Positions 1 through 23,429 of a stretch of DNA of 64,000 nucleotides are shown here, piece by piece; position 1 is the stretch's first letter; each line of letters opens with the position of its first letter. The position numbers and the translations under genes are program-made. Location of the stretch: NCBI RefSeq assembly GCF_988243305.1, contig NZ_OZ547136.1. One strand, given 5' to 3'. The notes beneath the pieces are model-generated. The model was not told the origin of the DNA. It worked only from the letters and a program-made list of their open reading frames with translations, and made no database searches.

Positions 1-93
1 GAAAATAGCGTCTTTCTGCATGTTCATATCGTCGCGGTTCAGACATGAAGGGCTGTGAGAGATCAGAACATGAATATTGATAAAGTTAGACAT
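1..93 (-). CDS. casC: CasC/Cas7 (Cascade backbone subunit), N-terminal 31 codons only; gene continues beyond window start
   Basis: Reverse complement of 1-93 translates [31 protein letters not shown], the recalled CasC N-terminus; ATG at 93-91 lies 12 bp downstream of the casB stop. Confidence 0.8.
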
Positions 94-105
94 AGAAAGG
101 TTTCC

Positions 106-588
106 TTACGCATTTTTGTTTGTGGTCAATACAAAATCTTCCAGAAGTTGCTGGCGTTCGCGCTTTCCCCACCAGGTCAACATCCTGGCCATTAATGGCC
201 AGTCAAGTACGGGTTCGGCGTGAGTAAGTAATCGACGTAACTGGACCATATCGGCTGTTCTGTCAGCCCGAATTAATTGAAAGATACGGCGCTCGTTAAT
301 TCTTCCACTATTGGCTAAAGCTCTTCCCAACGAGATACCTGTTGTTTGCTCCGGTTTTTTGTCCTGATGTCGGATGACATTCTTTCCTGCGCTCAGGCAA
401 AACACCATGCGCAAAAGAGCCTGCTGGTGACGTGGGTTTTCCCAACCAAAAGGTTGCACCAACCGATAAAACGCAGGGATATCGCGTAATTCATCAGGTT
501 CTGAAACACGTCTAATTTGCGCACATGCTCCATTATCCAGTTGTTGCCAGGCTCGATATAAAGCCATTGCATCAATTTCATCAGCCAT
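106..588 (-). CDS. casB: CasB/Cse2, Cascade small subunit (160 aa)
   Basis: ORF track 106..588 (-), 160 aa, the recalled length of E. coli CasB; 8-bp overlap with casA end, typical operon coupling. Confidence 0.9.
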   Translation of the reverse strand: MADEIDAMALYRAWQQLDNGACAQIRRVSEPDELRDIPAFYRLVQPFGWENPRHQQALLRMVFCLSAGKNVIRHQDKKPEQTTGISLGRALANSGRINERRIFQLIRADRTADMVQLRRLLTHAEPVLDWPLMARMLTWWGKRERQQLLEDFVLTTNKNA

Positions 589-2089
589 TTGATGGCCCTC
601 CTTGCGGTTTTAACTCCCGTAAATGTTTGTATAGCGTGGCGCGGGCAAGCGCTAATGTGCTTATTAATTTAGGATGATGTGCATAGGGAGCTACAGATTG
701 ATTAAATAGCATTTCACACAATTGATGAAGTTTGTCTCGTAAATCAGCTATTACCTCATCAGCCTGGGAAAAATTAATTTTCGCCAATACATCTGGAATT
801 AATAATTCACTCTGTCGATAGAAATGCCTTTCTGCAGTCTCATGAACAGAGACTCCGGCCCCTTTGAAGTCTTTATTTTTAAACCCTTCTGCAAAGGTAT
901 ATAACGCCTTGCGTAAGGCTGTTTTATACCCCAAACCAACAGTCACTATTTCGTTTATAACATTGCCGTATTGTTGCCACCCCTGATTAAACATCAGCAC
1001 ATCATGACGTCGTTCAAGAATAGATGCTTGATTATTACGATATCCCCCCATAATCAATTCAAGAGGACTTTGCGGCGCAATATTTCTGAATTGATTCACA
1101 ACCGCCGCCACGCGATTTCCATTTTCATTTTGAATAATCTTATCTACCACAACTCGGCTGATTTGCGTCCATGATGGTGCGGAGGTGGTGAAAGCAAGAA
1201 ATTTTTCCTCAACCTTCCCTTTCTTGACTGTTACCAGACAAGGGGAATGCGGATGGGGCCATAGTCCATTAACTGTAAAGGTAAATTTTTCCTTAAGAAA
1301 ACCGGTATAACGCAAATTGCTTTCCTGTCCACAGCAAGAACATTTACCAATCCCAATGGGATCGCATAGTTCAATATGCGCTGGTTGCCAGAATAAACCA
1401 CGGACAAACCCAATTGACGAAGCTGGCACAGATTCATTGGGCTTGATAGGCTTAATCCAGGTAGGTTGGTTTTCCGTATGTAATTCATTGGGAAATTGTT
1501 TTTGAAGACGAGGTATTGTGAGGACATTGAGTAATACCGTCGAGCGAAGATCGATCCCACATACGAAGGTGGTTATAGGTGTTCCTCCACGTAAACCGCT
1601 TTTAAAGCCACCACCAAAACCAGGTGCCTGATTCGCCTGGTTGAATAACGCAATCGCAGTGCATCCACCACATAATGCTTCACCCTGCCCCGGTTGATTG
1701 ACAAATGCACAATTCGTCGCGCCGCTTACCCCAGCCAACAGTTTTTCCATTGGAGTCACATCATTTGCTTTGACACCTTTGGTCTGCATAAAGGGATGTT
1801 CTGCGTGATTAAGGTAGAACATATCTATCCACGGCGCGATGAGTTGTTGAAACTCATCTTCAGTGAGCGGATTCATTATGCGATGTCGAAATTCAACGTC
1901 ATCTTTTGCCGGGGCGATAATTTGTCCAATGCAAACCAGCAGTGCTAAAGCGGCCAGTTCCATATCGTCACGGGGCAAACTTAATCGCCACTGATCTCTA
2001 CTGCAGTATAGCGATTGCAGATTTAGGATTTGGACTTTCCCCCCGTTTCGCGGGCGTACAGGGATCCAGTTATCAATAAGCAAATTCAT
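581..2089 (-). CDS. casA: CasA/Cse1, Cascade large subunit (502 aa)
   Basis: ORF track 581..2089 (-), 502 aa starting MNLLIDNWIPVRPRNGGKVQILNLQSL; length and position between cas3 and casB fit type I-E. Confidence 0.9.
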   Translation of the reverse strand: MNLLIDNWIPVRPRNGGKVQILNLQSLYCSRDQWRLSLPRDDMELAALALLVCIGQIIAPAKDDVEFRHRIMNPLTEDEFQQLIAPWIDMFYLNHAEHPFMQTKGVKANDVTPMEKLLAGVSGATNCAFVNQPGQGEALCGGCTAIALFNQANQAPGFGGGFKSGLRGGTPITTFVCGIDLRSTVLLNVLTIPRLQKQFPNELHTENQPTWIKPIKPNESVPASSIGFVRGLFWQPAHIELCDPIGIGKCSCCGQESNLRYTGFLKEKFTFTVNGLWPHPHSPCLVTVKKGKVEEKFLAFTTSAPSWTQISRVVVDKIIQNENGNRVAAVVNQFRNIAPQSPLELIMGGYRNNQASILERRHDVLMFNQGWQQYGNVINEIVTVGLGYKTALRKALYTFAEGFKNKDFKGAGVSVHETAERHFYRQSELLIPDVLAKINFSQADEVIADLRDKLHQLCEMLFNQSVAPYAHHPKLISTLALARATLYKHLRELKPQGGPSNG

Positions 2090-2504
2090 TTGTTCTCCTT
2101 CATATGCTCCGACATTTCTCCTGCATTTCTATACGTCGGAACACTTCCGTTATCGGTAAAAACAAAGAAAAAATACGGCGTAATTAATTCAATAATCACA
2201 TTCACTGCAAAAATATATTCATTGGTTTAATACAATTAACCTATGCATATATTAAGATGTGTTGAATTGTTTAAAGACAATAATGCATGCATTTCAAATC
2301 TGCAAGTTATTCGTTTTATTATCAAAGAAATTTTTTAGTTATAATAATTACCATAAATTTTATTACATAAAATATTCATACTGTGAATATAAAATCTCAT
2401 ACCGGGAAATTAAAAGAAGATGTACATTGTGCACCTTCCCTACTTAAGTAGGGATAAACCGTTATTGGTCTTGTTATCGTCATTGATACCAATCATTCCC
2501 GAAG
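2090..2504. promoter_or_regulatory. AT-rich cas3-casA intergenic region, expected site of the Cascade operon promoter (H-NS silenced, LeuO activated in E. coli)
   Basis: About 415 bp of strongly AT-rich, curved-looking DNA (runs such as ttattatcaaagaaattttttagttataataattaccataaattttattacataaaatattcatactgtgaatataaaat) directly upstream of casA; promoter identity is from established knowledge of the locus, exact -10/-35 not determined. Confidence 0.5.
2436..2461 (+). repeat. Solitary CRISPR-repeat-like palindrome (TTCCCTACTTAAGTAGGGATAAACCG) 44 bp downstream of cas3 stop
   Basis: Shares 5-prime TTCCC and 3-prime GGGATAAACCG with the I-E repeat GAGTTCCCCGCGCCAGCGGGGATAAACCG; central 16-bp perfect palindrome CCCTACTTAAGTAGGG replaces the repeat stem. 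Confidence 0.45.
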
Positions 2505-5171
2505 TTATTTGGGATTTGCAGGGATGACTCTGGTCATCCCTTCATCCCGAGTGTAGGTAATAACAATATTATTACCCTGCCAGATCCATCCATCCTGATT
2601 CTGTTTCCCTTCCAGCCAAAGTAACCCATCTTCATCTACTACTTCAGAAAAACTACGTTTCCAGGTGAAGGGTACATTGACGCGATTAAGTGCTAACGCC
2701 TCATACTGCTGTTCATGACTTAGGTCCTCGTAGACCTGGCCATCGAGCAGTTGTTTACCTGAAGACGTTTGTACATAAGGCAATAATGGCAGGCTCATTT
2801 CCCCATCCCTCGTTACCGCAAGAATGGTTTCATCGTTATCCTGCAAGCTATATTCTTCAGCCCACTGCAGAACCTTACGAGCCTTGAACCTTTTTTCACA
2901 CTCGGCGCTTTCAAACTTATCCATGCCTTTGATGACCCATTCTGGCTCATCCATTTCCGCATCATCGTAAATGCTATCCAGCCATTGCCGGTAGGCATCA
3001 GGGAAAAATAAGGATGCTCCATTAAGTTCCTCAATATGTTGCTGCGTCCGCCACATGACTCTAACGTTGCTATAAATATGCTCATGTCGTCCGTAACCTT
3101 CGCCATCAGGCAGCAAAATGGTGGCAAGAGGAATCTCAAAACCAACGGGGCGATATTTACGATGATGGCGATGTAAACGGCCCAATCGTTGGAAAAGCAA
3201 ATCTGCGGGACAATGCTGAGTAATTAACCAATCAAAATCAACGTCGAGTGATTGTTCCACGACCTGTGTGGCAACAAGTATTCTTCCAACATTTCGCTCC
3301 CCATTTTTCCCAAAATTACTAATAACACGATTCTCTTTTTCACGGCGATCGTTCAGCGTAAAGCGCGCATGAAACAAATCTATATCTACTTGCGTGTTAT
3401 TTAGTTCCTTTAACCGTTGGTGGCATAGTTGTGCAACATCAACCAAATTGCAGATAAGACAGACTTGTGCACCCGCATTTGCCGCTGCGATCATTCGCTC
3501 TAACATCGTAAGGTCAGGTAACATGTCAGCTAAATAAATAGGTTCTGGCTGAATCGAAAAGCGGGGCGGGAGTTGTTCTGGATGAGCTAACAGATCAAAA
3601 CGTTGCGCACCATTCACACCTCGCCAGTTAATGAGTGGATATGCGGAGTTATTTTCCTCTGGATCTGTATGCAGACCATAAGTATCCAGAAGTTTCTGTT
3701 TTTGTTTCATTGGTAGAGTTGCGGAAAGAAGAATAACACTCCCCCCCACATCAGCCTGAGCCTTGAGCACAGCCTCCAGCAAGCCGTTCATATACGTGTC
3801 GTAAGCATGAACTTCATCAACAATTAAAACACTTCGACCAATTCCCAAACCACGGATAAAGCGGTGTTTAACTGGCAATACCGATATCAACACCTGATCA
3901 ATCGTGCAAACGCCTATTTGCCCAAGAAACACTTTCTTATTGCTTTGTGACAACCATTGGCAACACTGAACCCACGCTTCTTCTTGCCCCTGCTCAGTAA
4001 ATGCGCGTGATTTTATTGATTGAAAAAGGTGGTTAAAACGTGAATTACCATGAGCAAGAATAAGATTTGGGGAGGTAAATAAACGGCTCGCGTTCGCTTC
4101 CATTCTGCTGAGCATTGCATTTGCAGTAGCTTGTGTAGGGAGGGCAAAAATAACACTATCCGCAAGTTGTTGGTCAATAAGTTTCCAGGCATAGGCCAGC
4201 GCTGTTTCGGTTTTACCTGATCCCGTAGGTGCCTCAATCACCGTCAGCCCGGGAGCTGTAGGAAGAGCATCAACCAACACCTGTAATTGTCTTGGTTGAT
4301 AGCCATTGTCCAGTAAGGCATGTACGCCGTCATAACTACGCTTATTTGATACAAGGCCACTCAACTCAAGTACCCGACACGCATCCTGTTGTCTATCCTG
4401 AAAATATTTTCTTAGCGCTTGTATGCCTGAAGGTGCATCTTCTTTGAATAGAAAGGTATCCGTTGTGGTCCAGGAACCTAACCAGTCAGCAAGCGAGCAA
4501 AAACCTGCTAACAATGATGAACAATCAGGTGGTATATCGTTTATAGATAACCCGGCTGGTGTTAAAAATAATGCTTCGAGTACAGATATCCACTCCTCAC
4601 GAGCCTGTTTATCTTGCGCAGCATAAGATGCCAGAGAAGCTGGCATTTCCCAACGCGACTTATCTTGATCCTGGGAATGTAATATAAAACCATGATGTCC
4701 TGTAACGGCCTCTACCCAAGGAAACCAGGACTCATAAGGATGAGGAGCGGCATCAAAAAAACTGAAAAAATCCCCGGGAGATTGCTCTGAAAGTGAATCC
4801 TGGTTAAACCAATACAGACCGGCTGCACCATGATTAAATTTACGGCACATTTGTGTTGATGGACCATTAAGTGATGGCGTTGCAGGATTTAATTTCAGCC
4901 AACTTTCTGCTGATTTATATTGGAATCGTATATCAAACTTTCCGATATCATGAAGGGCAATGAAAAATAACAGCCAGGCTTTCACCTTCTGTTTTGATAG
5001 CATTTCATTTCGGCAAAAAGCATTTTGTAGTACGACTGATTGATCCCACCAGCAATCTGCAACAGCTGCAACATCCAGGCAATGATAAATCAACAGATGA
5101 ATATCATTTCCTTTCGTCAGGCTTTTTGAGGATTTCCCCCAGTAATGACATATATATTTAAAAGGTTCCAT
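2505..5171 (-). CDS. cas3: Cas3 HD-nuclease/SF2 helicase (888 aa)
   Basis: ORF 888 aa; HD motif (ALHDIGKFD), Walker A (APTGSGKTE) and DEVH box (VDEVHAYD) visible in translation. Confidence 0.95.
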   Translation of the reverse strand: MEPFKYICHYWGKSSKSLTKGNDIHLLIYHCLDVAAVADCWWDQSVVLQNAFCRNEMLSKQKVKAWLLFFIALHDIGKFDIRFQYKSAESWLKLNPATPSLNGPSTQMCRKFNHGAAGLYWFNQDSLSEQSPGDFFSFFDAAPHPYESWFPWVEAVTGHHGFILHSQDQDKSRWEMPASLASYAAQDKQAREEWISVLEALFLTPAGLSINDIPPDCSSLLAGFCSLADWLGSWTTTDTFLFKEDAPSGIQALRKYFQDRQQDACRVLELSGLVSNKRSYDGVHALLDNGYQPRQLQVLVDALPTAPGLTVIEAPTGSGKTETALAYAWKLIDQQLADSVIFALPTQATANAMLSRMEANASRLFTSPNLILAHGNSRFNHLFQSIKSRAFTEQGQEEAWVQCCQWLSQSNKKVFLGQIGVCTIDQVLISVLPVKHRFIRGLGIGRSVLIVDEVHAYDTYMNGLLEAVLKAQADVGGSVILLSATLPMKQKQKLLDTYGLHTDPEENNSAYPLINWRGVNGAQRFDLLAHPEQLPPRFSIQPEPIYLADMLPDLTMLERMIAAANAGAQVCLICNLVDVAQLCHQRLKELNNTQVDIDLFHARFTLNDRREKENRVISNFGKNGERNVGRILVATQVVEQSLDVDFDWLITQHCPADLLFQRLGRLHRHHRKYRPVGFEIPLATILLPDGEGYGRHEHIYSNVRVMWRTQQHIEELNGASLFFPDAYRQWLDSIYDDAEMDEPEWVIKGMDKFESAECEKRFKARKVLQWAEEYSLQDNDETILAVTRDGEMSLPLLPYVQTSSGKQLLDGQVYEDLSHEQQYEALALNRVNVPFTWKRSFSEVVDEDGLLWLEGKQNQDGWIWQGNNIVITYTRDEGMTRVIPANPK

Positions 5172-6337: not shown

Positions 6338-8050
6338 TTAATCCCACAAATCGCGCGCCGGATCGAGCACCGGGCGAATGATGCCCGCACGCACCGTAAA
6401 GTCGCCGAAGCCTTCACCCGCTTCGCGCTCTTTCGCCCACCGCCCTATCAGTTCATCAAGCGACGCCAGGATTTCCGACTCGGTGATGTTTTCTTTATAC
6501 ATCCGTGGGATACGTGTCCCAATGCGGTTGCCGCCAAGATGCAGGTTGTAGCGACCCGGCGCTTTACCCACCAGGCCCACTTCCGCCAGCATCGCGCGAC
6601 CACAACCGTTCGGGCAGCCTGTTACACGCATCACGATATGCTCATCGCTGACACTATGTTTCGCCATTAAATTATCGATGTTGTCGATAAAAGACGGCAG
6701 GAAACGCTCCGCTTCCGCCATCGCCAGCGGGCAAGTCGGGAATGACACGCAGGCCATTGAGTTTTCACGCTGTGGCGTGACGGCATTCATTAACCCGCTC
6801 TCTTTGGCGATCTTCTCGATCTTCGCTTTCTCGCTTTCCGGTACACCCGCGATGATAAGATTCTGGTTCGCCGTAATGCGGAAATCACCTTTGTGGATCT
6901 TCGCGATCTCCAGCAGGCCAGTTTTCAGCGGACGCCCCGGATAATCAAGGATGCGTCCATTTTCGATAAACAGCGTCAGGTGCCAGTTATCATCAATACC
7001 TTTAACCCAGCCAATACGATCGCCGCGTCCGGTAAACTCATACGGACGAATCGGTTCAAATTTGATCCCCGCGCGACGCTCCACTTCCGCTTTAAACGTC
7101 TCAACCCCCACGCGCTCCAGCGTGTATTTGGTTTTGGCATTTTTACGATCGGTTCGGTTACCCCAGTCACGCTGAGTTGTCACGACGGCTTCCGCCACCG
7201 CCAGCGTATGCTCCAGCGGCAGATAACCAAACTCACTCGCCGTGCGGGCGTAGGTTTTCTTGTTGCCGTGTTCGATGGAAAGCCCACCGCCCACCAGCAG
7301 GTTAAAGCCAACCAGCTTGCCGTTTTCGGCGATTGCCACGAAGTTCATGTCGTTGGCATGCAGATCGATATCGTTCTGCGGCGGGATCACTACCGTGGTT
7401 TTGAATTTACGCGGCAAATAAGTCTGACCGAGGATCGGTTCTTCATCGGTGGTGGCGACTTTTTCCTGATCGAGCCAGATCTCCGCATACGCGCGGGTAC
7501 GTGGCAGCAGATGTTCAGAGATTTTCTTCGCCCATTCATATGCTTCCGCGTGCAACTGCGACTCGTAAGGGTTCGAGGTGCAGAGTACGTTACGGTTCAT
7601 GTCGTTAGCAGTCGCCAGCGCATCAAGACCGACCGAGTGCAGCATCTGGTGCACCGGTTTGACGTTCTTTTTCAGAATGCCGTGGAACTGGAACGTCTGG
7701 CGGTTGGTCAGGCGAATGCTGCCATAAATGGTGTTTTCACCGGCAAATTTATCGATCGCCTGCCACTGTTTGGTGGTGATCACGCCACCCGGCAGACGGC
7801 AGCGCAACAGCATCGCGTGGCGCGGCTCCAGCTTCTGTTCAGCACGTCCGGCGCGAATGTCGCGGTCATCCTGTTGATACATGCCGTGGAAGCGGATCAG
7901 CAGAAAGTTATCGCCCTTAAAGCCGCCGGTCAGACCGTCGTTTAAATCTTCCGCAATGGTGCCGCGCAGGTAGTTGCTTTCAAGCTTCATGCGCTCGGCG
8001 TCTGTCAGTTTTCCTTCGACCACTAAAGGCCCTGGATGTTTTTCGCTCAT
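6338..8050 (-). CDS. cysI: Sulfite reductase hemoprotein beta subunit (570 aa)
   Basis: 570 aa ORF, C-terminal siroheme/4Fe-4S region ([18 protein letters not shown]...TGCPNGCGR); directly downstream of cysJ with 1-bp overlap. Confidence 0.95.
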
Positions 8051-9849
8051 TAGTAGACATCTCGCTGATAACGGCGCTCTACGCGCAGCTCACTTAAAAA
8101 TTCATCCGCCGCTTCGGTGTCCATGCCACCAAATTCGGCAATCACTTCCAGAAGTGCCTGCTCAACATCTTTCGCCATGCGATTAGCGTCGCCGCAGACA
8201 TAAATGTGGGCACCGTCATTGATCCAGCGCCACAGCTCCGCGCCCTGTTCGCGCAGTTTGTCTTGTACATAAACTTTTTCTTTTTGGTCGCGCGACCAGG
8301 CAAGATCGATGCGGCTCAATACGCCTTCTTTCACGTAGCGCTGCCACTCCACCTGGTAGAGGAAATCTTCCGTAAAGTGCGGGTTGCCAAAGAACAACCA
8401 GTTTTTACCCGGCGCTTCGTCAGCGGCGCGCTGCTGCATAAAGGCGCGGAACGGCGCGATGCCGGTGCCTGGGCCAATCATAATCACCGGGGTTTCTGGG
8501 TTGGCTGGCAGGCGGAAGTTGTCGTTATGTTCGATAAATACGCGGACTTCGCCCTCTTCTTCCACGCGGTCCGCGAGGAAGCTGGAGGCACCACCGGCAC
8601 GGGCGCGGCCTTCCACGTCGTAACGCACCACACCAACGGTAACGTGCACTTCGTTCTCGACTTCCGCCTGCGAGGAGGCGATGGAATACAGGCGCGGGGT
8701 CAGCGGGCGCAACAGGTTAATCAGCGCTTCGGCATCCAGTTGCGCCGGAGAGAAACGCACCATGTCGACAATCGGCGTGGTCGCGGCGTAATGCTGTAAC
8801 TTCGCTTTATCGCCCACCAGCGGCAGCAGCGTTTCGCTGCGGGTAAGCGTGGCATAGTTCTCAACAATGTTGGCGGTGTTGACGGTCAGTTCGAAGTGCC
8901 ACTGTAGCGCTTCGTTCAGAGGCAACGTTTTGCCCTCGACGGTGACAGGTTCATCACCTTTCAGCCACAGCAGTTCGACAAGTTCTTTCACCAGTGCCGG
9001 ATCGTTCTGATACCAGACGCCCAGCGCGTCACCCGGCTGGTAACGCAGGCCCGAGTCACCTAAGTCAATTTCGATATGGCGAACGTCTTTTTCAGAGTTA
9101 CGCCCGGTAATTTTCTGGTTAACAGAGAGGCTCGCCACCAGCGGCGCGTCTTTGCTGTACGGGCTGGTGTGGATTTCATTTACCGCGCCAGTAGCGACGG
9201 ATTGCGAAGGTGCCGCGACAGGCGCACGCGATTTAAGCGCATCAACCACGCGGGCGCGCCACTCGATGGCAGCAGCCTGGTATTCAACGTCGGCATCGAC
9301 ACGGTCGAGCAGGCGTTCACCGCCCAGTTCCGCCAGCTTGCTGTCAAAATCTTTCCCGGACTGGCAGAAAAATTCATAAGAGCTATCGCCGAGGCTAAAC
9401 ACGGCAAATGCGGTGTTTTCCAGCTTCGGCGCTTTTTTGGAGAACAGGAACTTATGCAGCGCGACGGCTTCTTCCGGCGGTTCCCCTTCTCCTTGCGTTG
9501 ACGTCACCACGATAAGCAGTTTTTCGCTGGCGATTTGTTTGAATTTATAGTCGCCCGCGTTCACCAGCTTAACGTTCAGTTTTGCCGCCAATAAATCATC
9601 GCGTAACGCTTCAGCAACCCGGCGCGCATTGCCGGTTTGTGAAGCGGAGATAATAGTTATACCCGGCATTTCTGCGGCGGGCGCTGGCGTCGCTGCAAGC
9701 GCAGCTGGCTGCTGGTTGAGCACGCCCCAGAAATAGCCAGAAACCCAGGCAAGCTGGGTGGGAGTTAAATCGGTCGTGGCCGCCTGAAGGCGTGCCAGTT
9801 GCTCCGGGTTCAACGGAAGCAACGCGGAAGGTGGGACCTGTGTCGTCAT
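8050..9849 (-). CDS. cysJ: Sulfite reductase flavoprotein alpha subunit (599 aa)
   Basis: 599 aa ORF with flavodoxin-like N-terminal and FAD/NADPH reductase C-terminal regions; ends ...RYQRDVY. Confidence 0.95.
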
Positions 9850-10164
9850 GCGTCGTTATGTTCCAGTAAGCAAAGCTGTTTCTGCGCCCTGTCAGCGCCC
9901 ATAAAACAGAAGAGAAGGTAAGGTTAACGGGGTGAACGGTGTGGATTAAAGACGGGATAGCGATAACTAATAACCAAATCGACTAACCTGTTTTAGCAAT
10001 AGTCTTTAACAACAAAATAGATTAACCAACCCAATGAAAAACAAATGAATTTAGCCAATCATTAAGATAAATCAGCGATTTTGCGCAACAAAGTCGTTTT
10101 AGATAATGCGAAAAAACAGCCTTTCCGGTACTCTACGGCGGTTTTATCGTCCTGTAGAGAAATT
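9850..10164. promoter_or_regulatory. cysJIH promoter / queD upstream region (CysB-regulated cysJ promoter expected here)
   Basis: Intergenic, AT-rich, immediately upstream of cysJ on the minus strand and queD on the plus strand; specific CysB sites not resolved by eye. Confidence 0.4.
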
Positions 10165-10530
10165 ATGATGTCCACCACGTTATTTAAAGATTTCACCTTC
10201 GAAGCCGCTCACCGCTTACCACACGTCCCGGAAGGACATAAATGTGGTCGCCTGCACGGGCATTCCTTTATGGTGCGACTGGAAATTACCGGGGAAGTCG
10301 ATCCGCATACGGGCTGGATTATCGATTTCGCTGAACTGAAAGCGGCGTTTAAGCCAACTTATGAGCGCCTCGATCACCATTATCTCAATGATATTCCAGG
10401 TCTGGAAAACCCAACCAGCGAAGTTTTAGCAAAATGGATTTGGGATCAGGTTAAACCCGTTGTGCCGCTGTTAAGTGCGGTGATGGTAAAAGAAACCTGT
10501 ACTGCAGGCTGTATCTATCGCGGCGAATGA
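10165..10530 (+). CDS. queD: 6-carboxy-5,6,7,8-tetrahydropterin synthase (121 aa)
   Basis: Internal Met of ORF 10081..10530 gives [35 protein letters not shown]..., the PTPS/QueD Zn-binding motif; 121 aa. Confidence 0.9.
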
Positions 10531-10607
10531 TAAGAGTGTGTCGGCGGTCAATTTCCCTTAAGTAACGCTATGTTAGGGTGTTGTGTTCTGGATATCTGAG
10601 GCATGAC

Positions 10608-11879
10608 ATGGAAGACGACTGCGACATTATTATTATTGGTGCCGGTATTGCAGGCACCGCTTGCGCGTTACGCTGCGCGCGAGCGGGTTTATCCGTTTTG
10701 TTACTCGAACGCGCTGAAATCCCCGGCAGCAAAAATCTTTCCGGCGGGCGGTTATATACCCATGCACTCGCGGAACTCCTCCCGCAGTTTCACCTGACCG
10801 CGCCTCTTGAACGACGCATCACTCACGAAATCCTTTCCCTGTTAACGCCGGATGGCGCAACGACGTTTTCCAGCTTACAGCCCAGCGGTGAATCCTGGAG
10901 TGTATTACGTGCACGCTTCGATCCGTGGCTGGTTGCCGAAGCTGAAAAAGAAGGTGTCGAATGCATCCCTGGTGCGACGGTGGATGCGCTGTATGAAGAA
11001 AACGGCAGGGTGTGTGGTGTCATTTGTGGTGACGATATTCTCCGCGCCCGTTATGTGGTGCTGGCAGAAGGTGCCAACAGCGTCCTGGCTGAGCGTCACG
11101 GGTTAGTGACTCGTCCTGCTGGCGAAGCGATGGCGTTGGGGATCAAAGAAGTGCTGTCGCTGGAAACATCCGCTATTGAAGAACGTTTTCATCTGGAGAA
11201 TAACGAAGGCGCAGCGTTGCTGTTCAGCGGCGGGATCTGTGATGACTTACCCGGCGGCGCATTTCTTTATACTAATCAACAAACGCTCTCGTTAGGGATT
11301 GTTTGCCCGCTCTCTTCACTTACGCAAAGTCGTGTTCCGGCAAGCGAGCTGCTGGCTCGCTTTAAAACGCATCCGGCAGTGCGCCCGCTTATCAAAAACA
11401 CGGAATCACTGGAGTATGGTGCGCATCTGGTGCCAGAAGGTGGCTTACACAGTATGCCGATGCAATACGCCGGTAACGGCTGGCTGCTGGTGGGCGATGC
11501 GTTGCGCAGTTGCGTCAATACCGGAATTTCCGTGCGCGGCATGGATATGGCGCTAACTGGCGCGCAGGCGGCGGCACAAACGCTGATAAGCGCCTGCCAG
11601 CACCGCGAGCCGCAAAATCTGTTTGCGCTTTATCATCACAACGTCGAGCGCAGCCTGCTATGGGATGTTCTACAACGTTATCAGCATGTTCCGGCGCTTT
11701 TGCAACGCCCTGGATGGTACCGTGCGTGGCCTGCGTTAATGCAGGATATTTCCCGCGATTTATGGGATCAGGGTGATAAACCTGTTCCACCGCTGCGCCA
11801 GTTATTCTGGCGTCATTTACGTCGTCACGGCCTGTGGCATCTGGCGGGCGATGTTATCAGGAGTCTGCGATGTCTGTAG
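10608..11879 (+). CDS. ygcN: FAD-dependent oxidoreductase, FixC/ETF-quinone oxidoreductase-like (423 aa)
   Basis: N-terminal dinucleotide-binding fold DIIIIGAGIAGTACALRCARAGLSVLLLER; start taken at MEDDCD. Confidence 0.85.
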   Translation: MEDDCDIIIIGAGIAGTACALRCARAGLSVLLLERAEIPGSKNLSGGRLYTHALAELLPQFHLTAPLERRITHEILSLLTPDGATTFSSLQPSGESWSVLRARFDPWLVAEAEKEGVECIPGATVDALYEENGRVCGVICGDDILRARYVVLAEGANSVLAERHGLVTRPAGEAMALGIKEVLSLETSAIEERFHLENNEGAALLFSGGICDDLPGGAFLYTNQQTLSLGIVCPLSSLTQSRVPASELLARFKTHPAVRPLIKNTESLEYGAHLVPEGGLHSMPMQYAGNGWLLVGDALRSCVNTGISVRGMDMALTGAQAAAQTLISACQHREPQNLFALYHHNVERSLLWDVLQRYQHVPALLQRPGWYRAWPALMQDISRDLWDQGDKPVPPLRQLFWRHLRRHGLWHLAGDVIRSLRCL

Positions 11880-19845: not shown

Positions 19846-21324
19846 ATGTCGAAAAAATACATCATAGGGATTGATGGCGGAAGTCAGAGCACAAAAGTGG
19901 TGATGTATGATCTGGAAGGTAATGTGGTTTGCGAAGGCAAAGGCTTATTGCAGCCGATGCACACGCCAGATGCCGATACCGCAGAACATCCTGACGACGA
20001 TTTATGGGCATCATTATGTTTTGCCGGTCACGATTTGATGAGTCAGTTTGCCGGGAATAAAGAAGATATTGTCGGTATTGGTCTGGGATCCATCCGTTGC
20101 TGCCGTGCGTTATTGAAAGCCGATGGCACGCCAGCTGCGCCGTTGATTAGCTGGCAGGATGCACGCGTTACACGCCCTTACGAACATACGAATCCTGACG
20201 TGGCATATGTCACCTCTTTTTCAGGTTATCTGACGCATCGCTTAACCGGCGAGTTTAAAGACAATATCGCCAACTATTTTGGTCAGTGGCCGGTGGATTA
20301 TAAGACCTGGGCATGGAGTGAAGATGCCGCAGTCATGGAGAAGTTTAATATCCCCCGTCATATGCTGTTTGATGTGCAAATGCCGGGCACTGTTCTTGGG
20401 CATATCACTCCTCAAGCCGCGCTGGCGACACATTTCCCAGCTGGGCTGCCGGTTGTTTGTACCACCAGTGATAAACCGGTAGAAGCACTGGGAGCCGGGT
20501 TACTGGATGATGAAACTGCGGTAATTTCTCTTGGCACTTACATCGCGTTGATGATGAACGGCAAAGCACTGCCGAAAGATCCGGTGGCGTACTGGCCGAT
20601 TATGTCTTCTATTCCGCAAACATTGCTGTATGAAGGTTACGGTATTCGCAAAGGCATGTGGACGGTGAGCTGGCTACGCGACATGTTAGGCGAGTCGTTA
20701 ATTCAGGATGCCAAAGCACAGGATCTTTCACCGGAAGATTTGCTCAACAAAAAAGCGTCTTGTGTGCCGCCAGGCTGTAATGGTCTGATGACGGTGCTGG
20801 ACTGGCTGACCAATCCGTGGGAACCGTACAAACGCGGGATTATGATTGGCTTTGATTCCAGCATGGATTACGCATGGATATATCGTTCGATACTGGAAAG
20901 CGTGGCGCTGACGCTGAAGAACAATTACGACAATATGTGTAATGAAATGAATCACTTTGCAAAGCATGTGATCATTACTGGCGGCGGTTCGAACAGCGAT
21001 CTGTTTATGCAGATTTTTGCCGACGTGTTCAACCTTCCGGCACGCCGTAACGCCATTAATGGTTGTGCAAGCCTGGGGGCAGCGATTAATACGGCGGTAG
21101 GTCTGGGGCTATACCCGGATTACGCAACGGCTGTCGACAAAATGGTTCGCGTGAAAGATATCTTTATGCCTGTTGAGAACAATGCCAAACGCTACGACGC
21201 GATGAATAAAGGCATTTTCAAGGAGTTAACCAAACATACTGATGTAATCCTGAAAAAATCGTATGAAGTGATGCATGGGGAATTGGGGAATGCGGATTCG
21301 ATCCAGAGCTGGTCGAATGCGTAA
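19846..21324 (+). CDS. ygcE: FGGY-family carbohydrate kinase (492 aa)
   Basis: N-terminal IGIDGGSQSTKVVMYD actin-fold kinase motif. Confidence 0.9.
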   Translation: MSKKYIIGIDGGSQSTKVVMYDLEGNVVCEGKGLLQPMHTPDADTAEHPDDDLWASLCFAGHDLMSQFAGNKEDIVGIGLGSIRCCRALLKADGTPAAPLISWQDARVTRPYEHTNPDVAYVTSFSGYLTHRLTGEFKDNIANYFGQWPVDYKTWAWSEDAAVMEKFNIPRHMLFDVQMPGTVLGHITPQAALATHFPAGLPVVCTTSDKPVEALGAGLLDDETAVISLGTYIALMMNGKALPKDPVAYWPIMSSIPQTLLYEGYGIRKGMWTVSWLRDMLGESLIQDAKAQDLSPEDLLNKKASCVPPGCNGLMTVLDWLTNPWEPYKRGIMIGFDSSMDYAWIYRSILESVALTLKNNYDNMCNEMNHFAKHVIITGGGSNSDLFMQIFADVFNLPARRNAINGCASLGAAINTAVGLGLYPDYATAVDKMVRVKDIFMPVENNAKRYDAMNKGIFKELTKHTDVILKKSYEVMHGELGNADSIQSWSNA

Positions 21325-21370
21325 GTGAGGAAGGCCGGGCGGGAAACTGCCCGGCCTGAACATACCTGAA

Positions 21371-21508
21371 TGGTTATCCCCGCTGACGTGGGGAACATAA
21401 GTTCGACAACTTAAAAAATGATAACAAGTCCGGTTTATCCCCGCTGATGCAGGGAACATAATAAAAACTTTAACTAGTTCGGTTTATCCCTGTTGTTACA
21501 AGGAATAT
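21371..21508 (-). CRISPR. Degenerate CRISPR remnant: 3 decayed type I-E repeats with 32-bp and 20-bp spacers
   Basis: Plus-strand repeats tggttatccccgctgacgtggggaacat (21371-21398), cggtttatccccgctgatgcagggaacat (21431-21459), cggtttatccctgttgttacaaggaatat (21480-21508). Confidence 0.6.
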
Positions 21509-21962
21509 TAACTACACTCGATGTCCTTAGAATAAAAGACAACGCAAACCGTACTTTATCAATTTTCATTTAAAGTATGAACTGGATATCTTTATTCATA
21601 AGAACTATTCATCAACAGCCTATAGAGACGGTTATGTAAAACCACTCATTAGCCTCAAAACAAAGACAAATTTCCAGATTTATTACTTAATCAATGAATA
21701 ATAAGCTTAAAAAACAATCTATTATCCTAAAGAAAAAATTAACAAACATCAATTCAATATTAAAAAAATAATATATGATAATTTCTTAATGATTTAAGTA
21801 TCATACAACTAACACTTTAATTAAATTTGATTTTTTGTATCGATAATTGTGAACTTATCATATATGGAGAGCTATTTTGAACATGAGGTGTTACGTGGAT
21901 ATATTGCTTAATACGAGTACTGCTAATATAAAAACTTGAGAAAGAGATAACGGGTTATATGG

Positions 21963-22418
21963 TGGTTTATCCCCGCTGGCGCGGGGAACTCCGTCAGTGT
22001 GCCAGTTGCTACTGTTTCCCATACGGTTTATCCCCGCTGACGCGGGGAACTCATCAGTGATATCCAACATTGCGGAGCTAAACGCGGTTTATCCCCGCTG
22101 GCGCGGGGAACTCTATAAATGTGCCATATACGGCGTTTGTTGCCTCGGTTTATCCCCGCTGGCGCGGGGAACTCCTCCCGGTGATGCGGGTTATGTGGCC
22201 TGCCGCCGGTTTATCCCCGCTGGCGCGGGGAACTCTTCGCCGCGTCAACAATTCGGACCTGTAAATCCGGTTTATCCCCGCTGGCGCGGGGAACTCATCC
22301 GGCGAACGCGCTACAGAGTACAGTTCACCGGTTTATCCCCGCTGGCGCGGGGAACTCGGAAACCGCCCCGGCGGTGGTTAGCTGTTTGCCGGTTTATCCC
22401 CGCTGGCGCGGGGAACTC
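21963..22418 (-). CRISPR. Type I-E CRISPR array, 8 repeats (29 bp) and 7 spacers (32 bp each)
   Basis: Plus-strand repeat cggtttatccccgctggcgcggggaactc at 21963, 22024, 22085, 22146, 22207, 22268, 22329, 22390; reverse complement is the canonical E. coli repeat, so crRNA is from the minus strand. Repeat at 21963 starts with t, repeat at 22024 has gctgAcgc. Confidence 0.95.
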
Positions 22419-22560
22419 TCTAAACATAACCTATTATTAATTAATAATTTTTTAAGCCAGTCACAATCTACCAACTTTATAGTATCACACAAACAACACA
22501 TCCATTATGTTAAAGAGCACTTAATCCATTGATTGAAAAGCTAAATATTTAAAGTAATCC
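22419..22560 (-). promoter_or_regulatory. Putative CRISPR leader (AT-rich) adjacent to the newest repeat
   Basis: AT-rich sequence tctaaacataacctattattaattaataattttttaagcc... upstream of the first repeat in the direction of transcription; degenerate repeats lie at the opposite end. Confidence 0.5.
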
Positions 22561-22757
22561 TATACCGACTAAAATCTACCAAACTTTACCGCAATAATTT
22601 TCACTCCAGCGAAAAATTAATGCCGCAGAATTTGTAGAGAATGCTAATGATTAGCCCTGGATGGGTAAAATGGAGGAGTTTTCAGAGGCGACAAACAATA
22701 TAAATGAGTAGAAATCTTTACAGGTTCCACCCATTTATAACGCTTATAAATGTTTAA

Positions 22758-23429
22758 TCAGGCAATATTTAGATATTTATGTGTTTGCATCGACAAACGC
22801 CAATTACGAGCAATGCAGGTTTCAATGCACAATCGTGTGGCATCATCCTTTTGGCTAATCGGCTGCAGTGCAATGACTCGCGGTTTATCATCGGTCAGCG
22901 TCGCCAAAAGTTCATCCAGTGCTTCAATATCACGTACGCGTCCCACTGGATGCTTGATTTCGTTGGCTCGCTCCAGTGCCTGTGACAACACTTCATAGCC
23001 GCCGCGCATGTTCAGCTTTGGCGATACGGTAACCCAGGTATTCGGTGTGCAGCGTACCTCATGAGTACCACTGGTTTCGATCTGGCAGCTAAAACCGTTC
23101 TTTTCGAGCAGGTCAGTCAGTGGCAGCAAATCATGAATGCAAGGCTCACCACCCGTAATCACCACATGCCGCGCGGTGTATCCCTGGCGACCAATGACAG
23201 CCAGCAAGTCTTCACTGCTCGCCGCCCCCCACTTATCACTCTCTTTGGTCTTCGCCAGAATGCTGAAAAGGGAGACTTCCCGATCCTCAAGCTTTTCCCA
23301 GGTGTGTTTGGTGTCGCACCAGGCACAGCCAACCGGGCATCCCTGTAAACGAATAAAAATGGCGGGGACGCCGGTAAAGTAACCCTCACCTTGCAGGGTC
23401 TGGAACATCTCGTTAATCGGGTACTGCAT
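22758..23429 (-). CDS. queE: 7-carboxy-7-deazaguanine synthase, radical SAM (223 aa)
   Basis: 223 aa ORF with the cysteine cluster QGCPVGCAWCDTKHTW. Confidence 0.92.
   Translation of the reverse strand: MQYPINEMFQTLQGEGYFTGVPAIFIRLQGCPVGCAWCDTKHTWEKLEDREVSLFSILAKTKESDKWGAASSEDLLAVIGRQGYTARHVVITGGEPCIHDLLPLTDLLEKNGFSCQIETSGTHEVRCTPNTWVTVSPKLNMRGGYEVLSQALERANEIKHPVGRVRDIEALDELLATLTDDKPRVIALQPISQKDDATRLCIETCIARNWRLSMQTHKYLNIA

Follow-up and report, generated by a model that had tools for sequence, protein, structure and literature searches.

The split CRISPR-II locus of Escherichia coli: description of the degenerate CRISPR2.2 mini-array, its AT-rich separator and CRISPR2.3

Introduction

The names CRISPR2.2 and CRISPR2.3 for parts of the CRISPR-II locus of Escherichia coli are said to go back to Diez-Villasenor et al. 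2010. The locus consists either of one array (CRISPR2.2-3) or of CRISPR2.2 and CRISPR2.3 with 0.5 kb between them (Almendros et al. 2014, PMC3903273; also PMC3737337). Leaders are named for CRISPR2.1 and CRISPR2.3 only (Almendros et al. 2014, PMC3903273). CRISPR2.2 is defined by three type-2 (I-E) repeats and two invariable spacers (PMC4489801). The CRISPR-II locus is also treated by Touchon and Rocha 2010 (PMC2886076). The E. coli CRISPR literature has known the feature described below since 2010, and its detection is no news.

Two further kinds of element are close to it. The mini-array between cas3 and casA of the E. coli I-E system is predicted to target an AAG-flanked site at an H-NS site upstream of Pcas (Shmakov et al. 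2023, 10.1101/2023.03.03.530964). Its Salmonella counterpart, CreR, represses PcasA via E. coli Cascade (Liu et al. 2023, 10.1101/2023.03.10.532045). The second kind are the promoter islands of E. coli K-12 (Shavkunov 2009, PMC2731890; Panyukov and Ozoline 2013, PMC3661553). Every island is bound in vivo by both RNA polymerase and H-NS and yields abortive oligonucleotides but hardly any long RNA; 75 of the 78 adjoin horizontally acquired (foreign) genes (Panyukov and Ozoline 2013, PMC3661553). The table of 78 islands includes 2901670-2902016, listed with ygcE(+)/queE(-) (Panyukov and Ozoline 2013, PMC3661553, Table S1), and the cas3-casA intergenic region is in the same list (PMC3661553).

Described here is the CRISPR-II locus of one E. 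coli chromosome, contained in a stretch of 64,000 nucleotides (hereafter the window), with its layout, conservation, probable history and relation to these systems.

Results

The feature is the known CRISPR2.2 mini-array with its separator and CRISPR2.3. The ygcE–queE interval is 1,433 bp long in the window and holds the split CRISPR-II locus of E. coli, in the order ygcE, trailer, terminal repeat Ra, CRISPR2.2, AT-rich separator, CRISPR2.3, leader 2.3, queE. The left flank is ygcE (19846..21324, plus strand), a 492-aa ORF for an FGGY-family sugar kinase, named after the RefSeq annotation of three syntenic loci. The right flank is queE, or ygcF (22758..23429, minus strand), a 223-aa ORF named queE in syntenic loci. 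The trailer, 45 bp from the ygcE stop to the anchor repeat (21325..21369), contains the GC-rich hairpin GGCCGGGCGGGAAACTGCCCGGCC; its sequence is kept in E. albertii and E. whittamii, and 8 of its 45 sites segregate within E. coli.

The mini-array lies on the minus strand. Ra (21370..21398), the 'anchor' repeat at which the whole CRISPR-II locus ends, has 7/29 mismatches to the consensus. Spacer 1 (21399..21430) is 32 nt long, 31% GC and invariant, with 0/32 sites segregating in eight strains. Rb (21431..21459), the middle repeat, has 5/29 mismatches, with hairpin and 8-nt 5' handle ATAAACCG intact. Spacer 2 (21460..21479) is 20 nt long, 15% GC and likewise invariant (0/20 sites). Rc (21480..21508) is the most degenerate repeat, with 10/29 mismatches and the handle ATAAACCG intact. 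The separator (21509..21962) is a non-coding tract of 454 bp, 26.4% GC against 50.0% for the whole window, neither leader-like nor array-like. CRISPR2.3 (21963..22418, minus strand), delimited by repeat search and profile, is an intact array of 8 near-perfect repeats and 7 spacers of 32 nt. Leader 2.3 (22419..22757, minus strand), the true leader of CRISPR2.3, is AT-rich, 339 bp long and extends up to the queE stop; its conserved core is 22419-22538, and it has 92% identity with its E. albertii counterpart.

Nine matches to the I-E repeat within 3 mismatches are present in the window (0.00 expected), and the repeat profile finds exactly 3+8 copies within the intergenic region. The plus strand carries the repeat as the reverse complement of GAGTTCCCCGCGCCAGCGGGGATAAACCG, and leader 2.3, the true one, is at 22419-22757, so the arrays are read on the minus strand; the separator is therefore upstream of Rc on the transcribed strand. 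The layout given in the initial annotation (three degenerate repeats, spacers of 32 and 20 nt, an AT-rich tract, an intact array) is borne out by the sequence, its start at 21371 being one base inside Ra. Its placement of the tract in leader position for the degenerate array also agrees with the minus-strand reading, the tract being AT-rich and upstream of Rc. Automatic annotation by PGAP labels only the intact array as 'CRISPR' in several syntenic loci.

All characters of the split CRISPR-II form are present: position between ygcE and queE (ygcF), three repeats with two fixed spacers, a separator of ~0.5 kb and leader 2.3. The mini-array and tract occur in 4123 of 5426 complete E. coli genomes (at least 80% coverage), always on the chromosome and essentially in single copy, and the block is missing from many E. 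coli lineages. The separator haplotype of the window is rare; identity of at least 99% to it is found in 11 of the 5426 genomes, and it diverges by 8.4% from the K-12 type.

Discussion

The initial annotation proposed two origins, a fossil leader with its fossil array, or a former single array split by deletion or recombination. The second fits better, continuous arrays with the same Ra being found elsewhere; its deletion part does not hold, as it is an AT-rich non-array segment that splits the array. The outgroups sampled were E. albertii, E. whittamii and a Citrobacter. In tract-less E. coli (loci L003 and L094) Ra (...GGGGATAACCAT, then TCAGGTATGTTCAGG) runs directly into ordinary spacers, repeats and leader 2.3. 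Three assemblies of E. albertii have an unbroken array between Ra and leader 2.3, two of them with 5-6 repeats and spacers of normal GC. In E. whittamii Ra directly abuts leader 2.3, with no tract. Citrobacter sedlakii has a bare spacer of 103 bp between ygcE and queE. The same Ra end adjoins ygcE in L003, E. albertii and E. whittamii.

Ra itself is of mixed type. Its 3' end is degenerate (ATAACCAT, one A short), and this 3' ATAACCAT is the ancestral state. Its 5' end is ATG in split strains, as in Rb (ATA in Rc), and GAG or GGG in outgroups and fused strains; the 5' ATG is common to the Rb/Rc type, which makes Ra a hybrid. As the 5' end differs between the split and the fused or outgroup forms, Ra looks like a recombinant repeat. 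A single ancestral array is favoured because outgroups and tract-less E. coli are continuous to the same Ra and because Ra looks recombinant. It is rather probable that a former single array was split by an AT-rich non-array segment, leaving a leaderless remnant. The starting form would have been a single array from leader 2.3 to Ra, as still present in E. albertii. On the E. coli lineage an AT-rich non-array segment would have lodged near the old trailer end, its placement probably due to recombination at repeats; the inserted segment may have been the tract alone or the tract together with Rc-sp2-Rb-sp1.

The polarity of this change deserves caution. Against a split by gain, repeat-repeat deletions occur, NCTC86 having lost exactly one unit, and an IS1-associated deletion is present in one further locus (L095). 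It is possible that recombination between repeats removed the block separately from the outgroups and from the tract-less E. coli. The best match of Rb is an old trailer-end repeat variant of K-12 CRISPR-I, and this likeness to a native E. coli repeat variant argues that the repeats at least are not foreign. Spacer 2 is identical in register to the first 17 nt of spacer 1 at 12/17 positions (p=0.002), and derived bases are common to Rb and Rc; for these reasons Rc-sp2 looks like an old, truncated and diverged tandem duplicate of Rb-sp1 and not like an acquired unit.

Whatever its origin, the mini-array varies little. Mean pairwise divergence among nine diverse E. coli is 10.5% at 4-fold sites of ygcE, 6.6% at 4-fold sites of queE, 6.2% in the trailer, 4.9% in the tract, 4.3% in leader 2.3 and 1.1% in the mini-array, the lowest of the segments compared. 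Segregating sites number 2/110 in the block sp1-Rb-sp2-Rc, against 58/219 at ygcE 4-fold sites (Fisher p=2e-9), 22/99 at queE 4-fold sites (p=3e-6) and 62/454 in the tract (p=9e-5). Identity of at least 99% to K-12 over the block is found in 3964 of 4155 carriers, and over an equal-length central piece of the tract in 2271 only; ~1,400 carriers are too diverged in that central piece for megablast detection.

For Ra, Rb and Rc alike, the predicted fold keeps the register of the consensus hairpin. Rb has an intact hairpin, as does Ra in most strains; the Ra of the window has one stem mismatch. Rc carries 5 substitutions in 14 stem positions, yet 7/7 pairs are kept by paired changes (p=0.006). 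To call the mini-array decayed is misleading: degenerate as it is when set against the consensus, it hardly varies among E. coli strains. Far from decaying, it is the best-conserved part of the locus, is under constraint and keeps its handles and, through paired substitutions, its RNA hairpins, while the low diversity of these 110 nt could have causes other than functional selection.

One such cause would be that the mini-array and tract are an inert, functionless relic, with low diversity left by mutation-rate or recombination history or by past hitch-hiking. The locus is indeed a mosaic, the window differing from one compared locus (L090) by 2.7% at ygcE 4-fold sites and by 16.2% at queE 4-fold sites; the final 450 nt of ygcE likewise show reduced 4-fold diversity (7/61 sites), and the block has been lost in many lineages with no obvious consequence. 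The dip in diversity is however sharply local, with 2/110 segregating sites in the block and 18/124 in the immediately adjoining 124 nt (Fisher p=6e-4), it holds over ~4,100 genomes, and the paired, hairpin-keeping substitutions in Rc are unexpected under neutral decay. An inert relic is a possible explanation, on balance unlikely. If the conservation is not functional, the locus is a caution that degenerate does not mean decaying.

The separator has a second identity. Its K-12 ortholog is 2,903,559-2,904,012. The offset between v2 and v3 K-12 coordinates is ~+1,977, and the gene labels of neighbouring islands confine it to 1,947-2,038. With this offset the island listed with ygcE and queE falls at ~2,903,647-2,903,993, within the K-12 ortholog of the separator. 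The separator is the ortholog of a published K-12 promoter island, a class that rests on the K-12 literature, the copy of this strain being 8.4% diverged. The same DNA has been catalogued independently as an H-NS/RNA-polymerase promoter island, and no link between the two literatures was found. A promoter scan of 21250-22800 gives 7 sites against 4.2 +/- 1.8 in composition-matched shuffles, the original island definition having used PlatProm instead. The consensus promoter scan yields a single weak site on the minus strand. Small ORFs of 20, 20 and 31 aa in the separator are intact in 8/8 strains compared and lie in its low-diversity parts; none longer survives, and no Shine-Dalgarno sequence is present upstream of the 31-aa ORF, the sole ORF inspected.

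A maintained function has a model in the same window. A second degenerate mini-array, which surfaced from a weak Rb-like match, is present in the cas3-casA intergenic region (2433-2521, plus strand) and consists of psiR1 (2433-2461), psiS (2462-2492) and psiR2 (2493-2521), all on the plus strand. As a positive control, a scan with the psi-spacer recovers the AAG-flanked site at window position 2307, with 13/14 scored seed-proximal positions matching. CRISPR2.2 may similarly be a maintained crRNA-like regulatory mini-array of the CreA/CreR type, processed by Cas6e and guiding Cascade as a repressor to a partly matching chromosomal site. Transcription of such a mini-array would start in tract promoters or read through from CRISPR2.3.

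This regulatory function is in keeping with an almost invariant block between variable flanks and with three hairpins in register, that of Rc through paired changes (p=0.006); the psi-repeats of the cas3-casA mini-array keep their hairpins likewise (p=0.013, 0.004). To mature, two crRNA-like RNAs would require exactly the handles kept by Rc and Rb and the hairpins kept by Rb and Ra. One such element of the E. coli I-E system is already known, and CreR of Salmonella is functional with Cascade of E. coli. The scan of the 64-kb window, cas3-casA region and tract included, nevertheless gives no PAM-flanked seed match for either spacer; AAG-flanked seed runs of the CRISPR2.2 spacers are no longer than those of shuffled spacers, the best sites having 7/14 and 9/14 positions. 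The array is ~17 kb from the cas operon (window ~1-5171), spacer 2 has just 20 nt, and the block is unchanged in BL21/C43, published as without cas genes. A regulatory mini-array of this kind is considered doubtful. The fuller proposal of a selected, leaderless second CreR/CreA-type element outside the cas operon, with the H-NS-silenced tract as a conditional promoter region and fixed spacers that would guide Cascade to a putative chromosomal target, is decidedly doubtful. As a whole, a crRNA-like function of CRISPR2.2 is compatible with the conservation pattern, with no target found in the 64-kb window, and the constrained mini-array may still yield crRNA-like RNAs. If the conservation reflects function, the best-studied CRISPR system would hold an overlooked regulatory guide.

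Spacer 1 has no protospacer in the phage collection (best E 0.3). Spacer 1 and the psi-spacer of the cas3-casA mini-array have a 9-mer in common (shuffling p=0.008); since K-12 has it broken, this is probably a coincidence.

The relation of the separator to leaders was assessed with 11 I-E leaders aligned at the leader-repeat junction. These were taken from E. coli CRISPR-I (K-12), CRISPR2.3, E. albertii, E. whittamii, Klebsiella spallanzanii, Escherichia sp. ESNIH1, Pseudocitrobacter, two Phytobacter, Pluralibacter and an uncultured enterobacterium. Enterobacterial I-E leaders have a common architecture, GTTGGTAGAT followed by AAAAAA and by TTTAGA at the junction with the repeat, within ~60-110 nt beside the repeat. 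Leader-versus-leader anchored alignments give z = 3-22, with few exceptions; the Rc-proximal 100 nt of the separator against leaders gives z = -0.6 to 1.6, like the negative control. The separator has no TTTAGA junction, GTTGGTAGAT box or A-run. A leader profile HMM was built from eight leaders, with the E. coli 2.3 family held out. Its single significant match in the 64 kb is leader 2.3 at 22419-22538(-) (E=8.4e-10, 34.4 bits), and its best score within the separator is -0.9 bits, at chance level. Local alignment of the separator with leader 2.3 in both orientations also gives chance-level scores. The power of the HMM, estimated by simulated decay of leader 2.3, falls from 95% when 17% of positions are substituted to 69% at 25%, the average for the three repeats, and to 43% at 35%, the level reached by Rc.

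It is very unlikely that CRISPR2.2 was once an independent array and the separator the decayed remnant of its leader and promoter. Alignment with I-E leaders (those of other E. coli had been proposed in the initial annotation) reveals no kinship of the tract: neither the z values for the 11 leaders nor the profile, which finds the held-out leader 2.3, detect any similarity to known I-E leaders, and this outcome, named there as the refuting one, speaks against the fossil leader and fossil array suggested there. Detection power is only 43% at Rc-level decay, and a leader decayed by more than ~35% would escape the test. On the transcribed strand the separator immediately precedes Rc, and like leaders it is AT-rich; Rc, which would be the leader-proximal repeat, is however the most degenerate, the reverse of real arrays. 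The K-12 ortholog binds RNA polymerase and has many promoter-like sites according to the literature. Against this origin, the separator, at 454 bp, exceeds leader 2.3 (339 bp) in length and greatly exceeds the CRISPR-I leader (~105 bp). A derived 5' AT is common to all three repeats, so one descends from another, a point in favour of this origin; the second unit, however, looks like a tandem duplication and not like an acquisition. The separator is also missing in every E. albertii and E. whittamii locus examined.

Under the favoured split of a single array, the separator, having none of the I-E leader hallmarks, would offer no integration site for Cas1-Cas2/IHF, and for this reason CRISPR2.2 would never gain spacers. 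No strain-to-strain spacer differences are found beside the separator, and the spacer content is identical in all split-form strains sampled. That the separator is not a recognisable leader gives a simple reason for the absent spacer gain in CRISPR2.2.

Searches for other identities of the separator are negative: a decayed array is ruled out, the repeat profile showing no cryptic decayed repeats and no 61-nt periodicity; the plasmid collection gives no relative, its three matches all being mislabelled chromosomes of 4.8-4.9 Mb; and IMG/VR gives none, the one contig from an exact-pattern scan being the same chromosomal locus beside a Mu-like prophage. The separator has no match in the phage collection and bears neither IS-like ends nor terminal inverted repeats. 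Over 21200-22900 the Rfam scan gives nothing meaningful, and the terminator scan gives no terminator. When the block is compared by BLAST with the remainder of the window and with the CRISPR-I/cas regions of this strain and K-12, only the repeats match.

Comparison with known systems

The separator is like leader 2.1, leader 2.3 and the leaders of Klebsiella, Phytobacter, Pluralibacter and Pseudocitrobacter in its upstream position and AT-richness, and unlike them in that the shared architecture is absent. I-E leaders support polarised acquisition, whereas the array beside the separator gains no spacers.

As in IS-interrupted arrays (e.g. CRISPR2 of E. coli ATCC 8739, PMC2886076), non-array DNA splits the array. 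The difference is that the separator lacks a transposase and terminal inverted repeats, does not recur elsewhere and has become fixed in most of the species.

The K-12 ortholog of the separator is like other promoter islands in its extreme AT content, reported binding of RNA polymerase and H-NS and little productive transcription. Most promoter islands flank horizontally acquired genes, whereas the separator is inside a CRISPR locus and has no attached gene.

With the regulatory mini-arrays, including CreR, CRISPR2.2 has in common degenerate repeats around a spacer that keep the upstream handle and the downstream hairpin, a fixed spacer and strong conservation between strains. Those mini-arrays lie within the cas operon and partly match an AAG-flanked site at the cas promoter, whereas CRISPR2.2 is neither within nor beside the cas operon (17 kb off), has three repeats and has no PAM-flanked partial target in the 64-kb window.

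Compared with the published CRISPR2.2 and CRISPR2.3, the locus shows no structural difference; the window is distinguished by its rare separator haplotype.

Variation of the CRISPR-II locus

The ygcE-queE locus is a recombination mosaic, as observed when window positions 19846-23429 were compared with eight loci from other genomes (L001, L086, L088-L093). At 4-fold sites, the window differs from FDAARGOS_1276 by 2.7% in ygcE and by 16.2% in queE. The AT-rich tract separating CRISPR2.2 from CRISPR2.3 (21509-21962) is of a rare haplotype, found at an identity of at least 99% in only 11 of 5426 genomes; the K-12-type tract differs from it by 8.4%.

Deletions and insertions are present at CRISPR-II and in the adjacent ygcE. 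In NCTC86, a single repeat-spacer unit of 61 nt (aligned to window 21390-21450) has been cleanly excised, so that spacer 1 of the CRISPR2.2 mini-array is gone and a hybrid repeat remains; this unit was lost by recombination between the first two repeats, Ra and Rb. In E. coli 13E0780 (L095, 2245-3060), IS1 stands in place of ygcE, the mini-array and most of the tract, of which only the last ~60 nt remain; here an IS-associated deletion extends into the CRISPR-II locus. In L102 (IMG/VR UViG_2531839665_000019), a Mu-like prophage (7156-11476) with genes for a MuA-type transposase, a MuB-type ATPase and a CI-type repressor interrupts ygcE, with an insertion site equivalent to window position ~21088, and for this reason a chromosomal ygcE-queE locus is found in a viral collection.

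Some genomes are devoid of any CRISPR-II, their queE-ygcE interval consisting of ~100-110 bp of unrelated intergenic DNA. Such intervals occur in E. coli SCPM-O-B-8794 (L006, 6670-6800) and in Citrobacter sedlakii (L099, 5480-5582), whose YgcE shares at least 90% identity with its E. coli counterpart. In Pseudocitrobacter, Phytobacter and an uncultured enterobacterium (L058, L060, L075, L078), queE is followed immediately downstream by I-E arrays whose leaders are recognisably related; the array position beside queE is therefore widespread in Enterobacteriaceae.

Small open reading frames

Three small ORFs are located in the tract: two of 20 aa on the plus strand (21577-21639 and 21877-21939) and one of 31 aa on the minus strand (21569-21474). 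All are unbroken in each of the eight strains compared and fall in low-diversity parts of the tract. No Shine-Dalgarno sequence was detected upstream of the 31-aa ORF, the only one inspected for it. An old sRNA prediction, HB_171, is placed in the ygcE-queE intergenic region (cited in PMC2731890).

The cas3-casA mini-array

A second, degenerate mini-array, psiR1 - 31-nt spacer - psiR2, occupies window 2433-2521 (plus strand) in the cas3-casA intergenic region, antisense relative to the cas genes. Its psi-spacer and CRISPR2.2 spacer 1 have the 9-mer CTTGTTATC in common (at 2470-2478 and 21399-21407, respectively), close to the handle-proximal end in both (p = 0.008, shuffling). The shared 9-mer is probably a coincidence, since the match is interrupted in K-12, which reads CTTATTATC. 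The candidate target of the psi-spacer, an AAG-flanked partial match near 2304-2323, lies 155 nt downstream, within the same intergenic region. K-12 also possesses the cas3-casA mini-array. It corresponds to a member of the class of regulatory mini-arrays, which includes Salmonella CreR and is already published for the I-E systems of E. coli and Salmonella (Shmakov et al., 2023, 10.1101/2023.03.03.530964; Liu et al., 2023, 10.1101/2023.03.10.532045).
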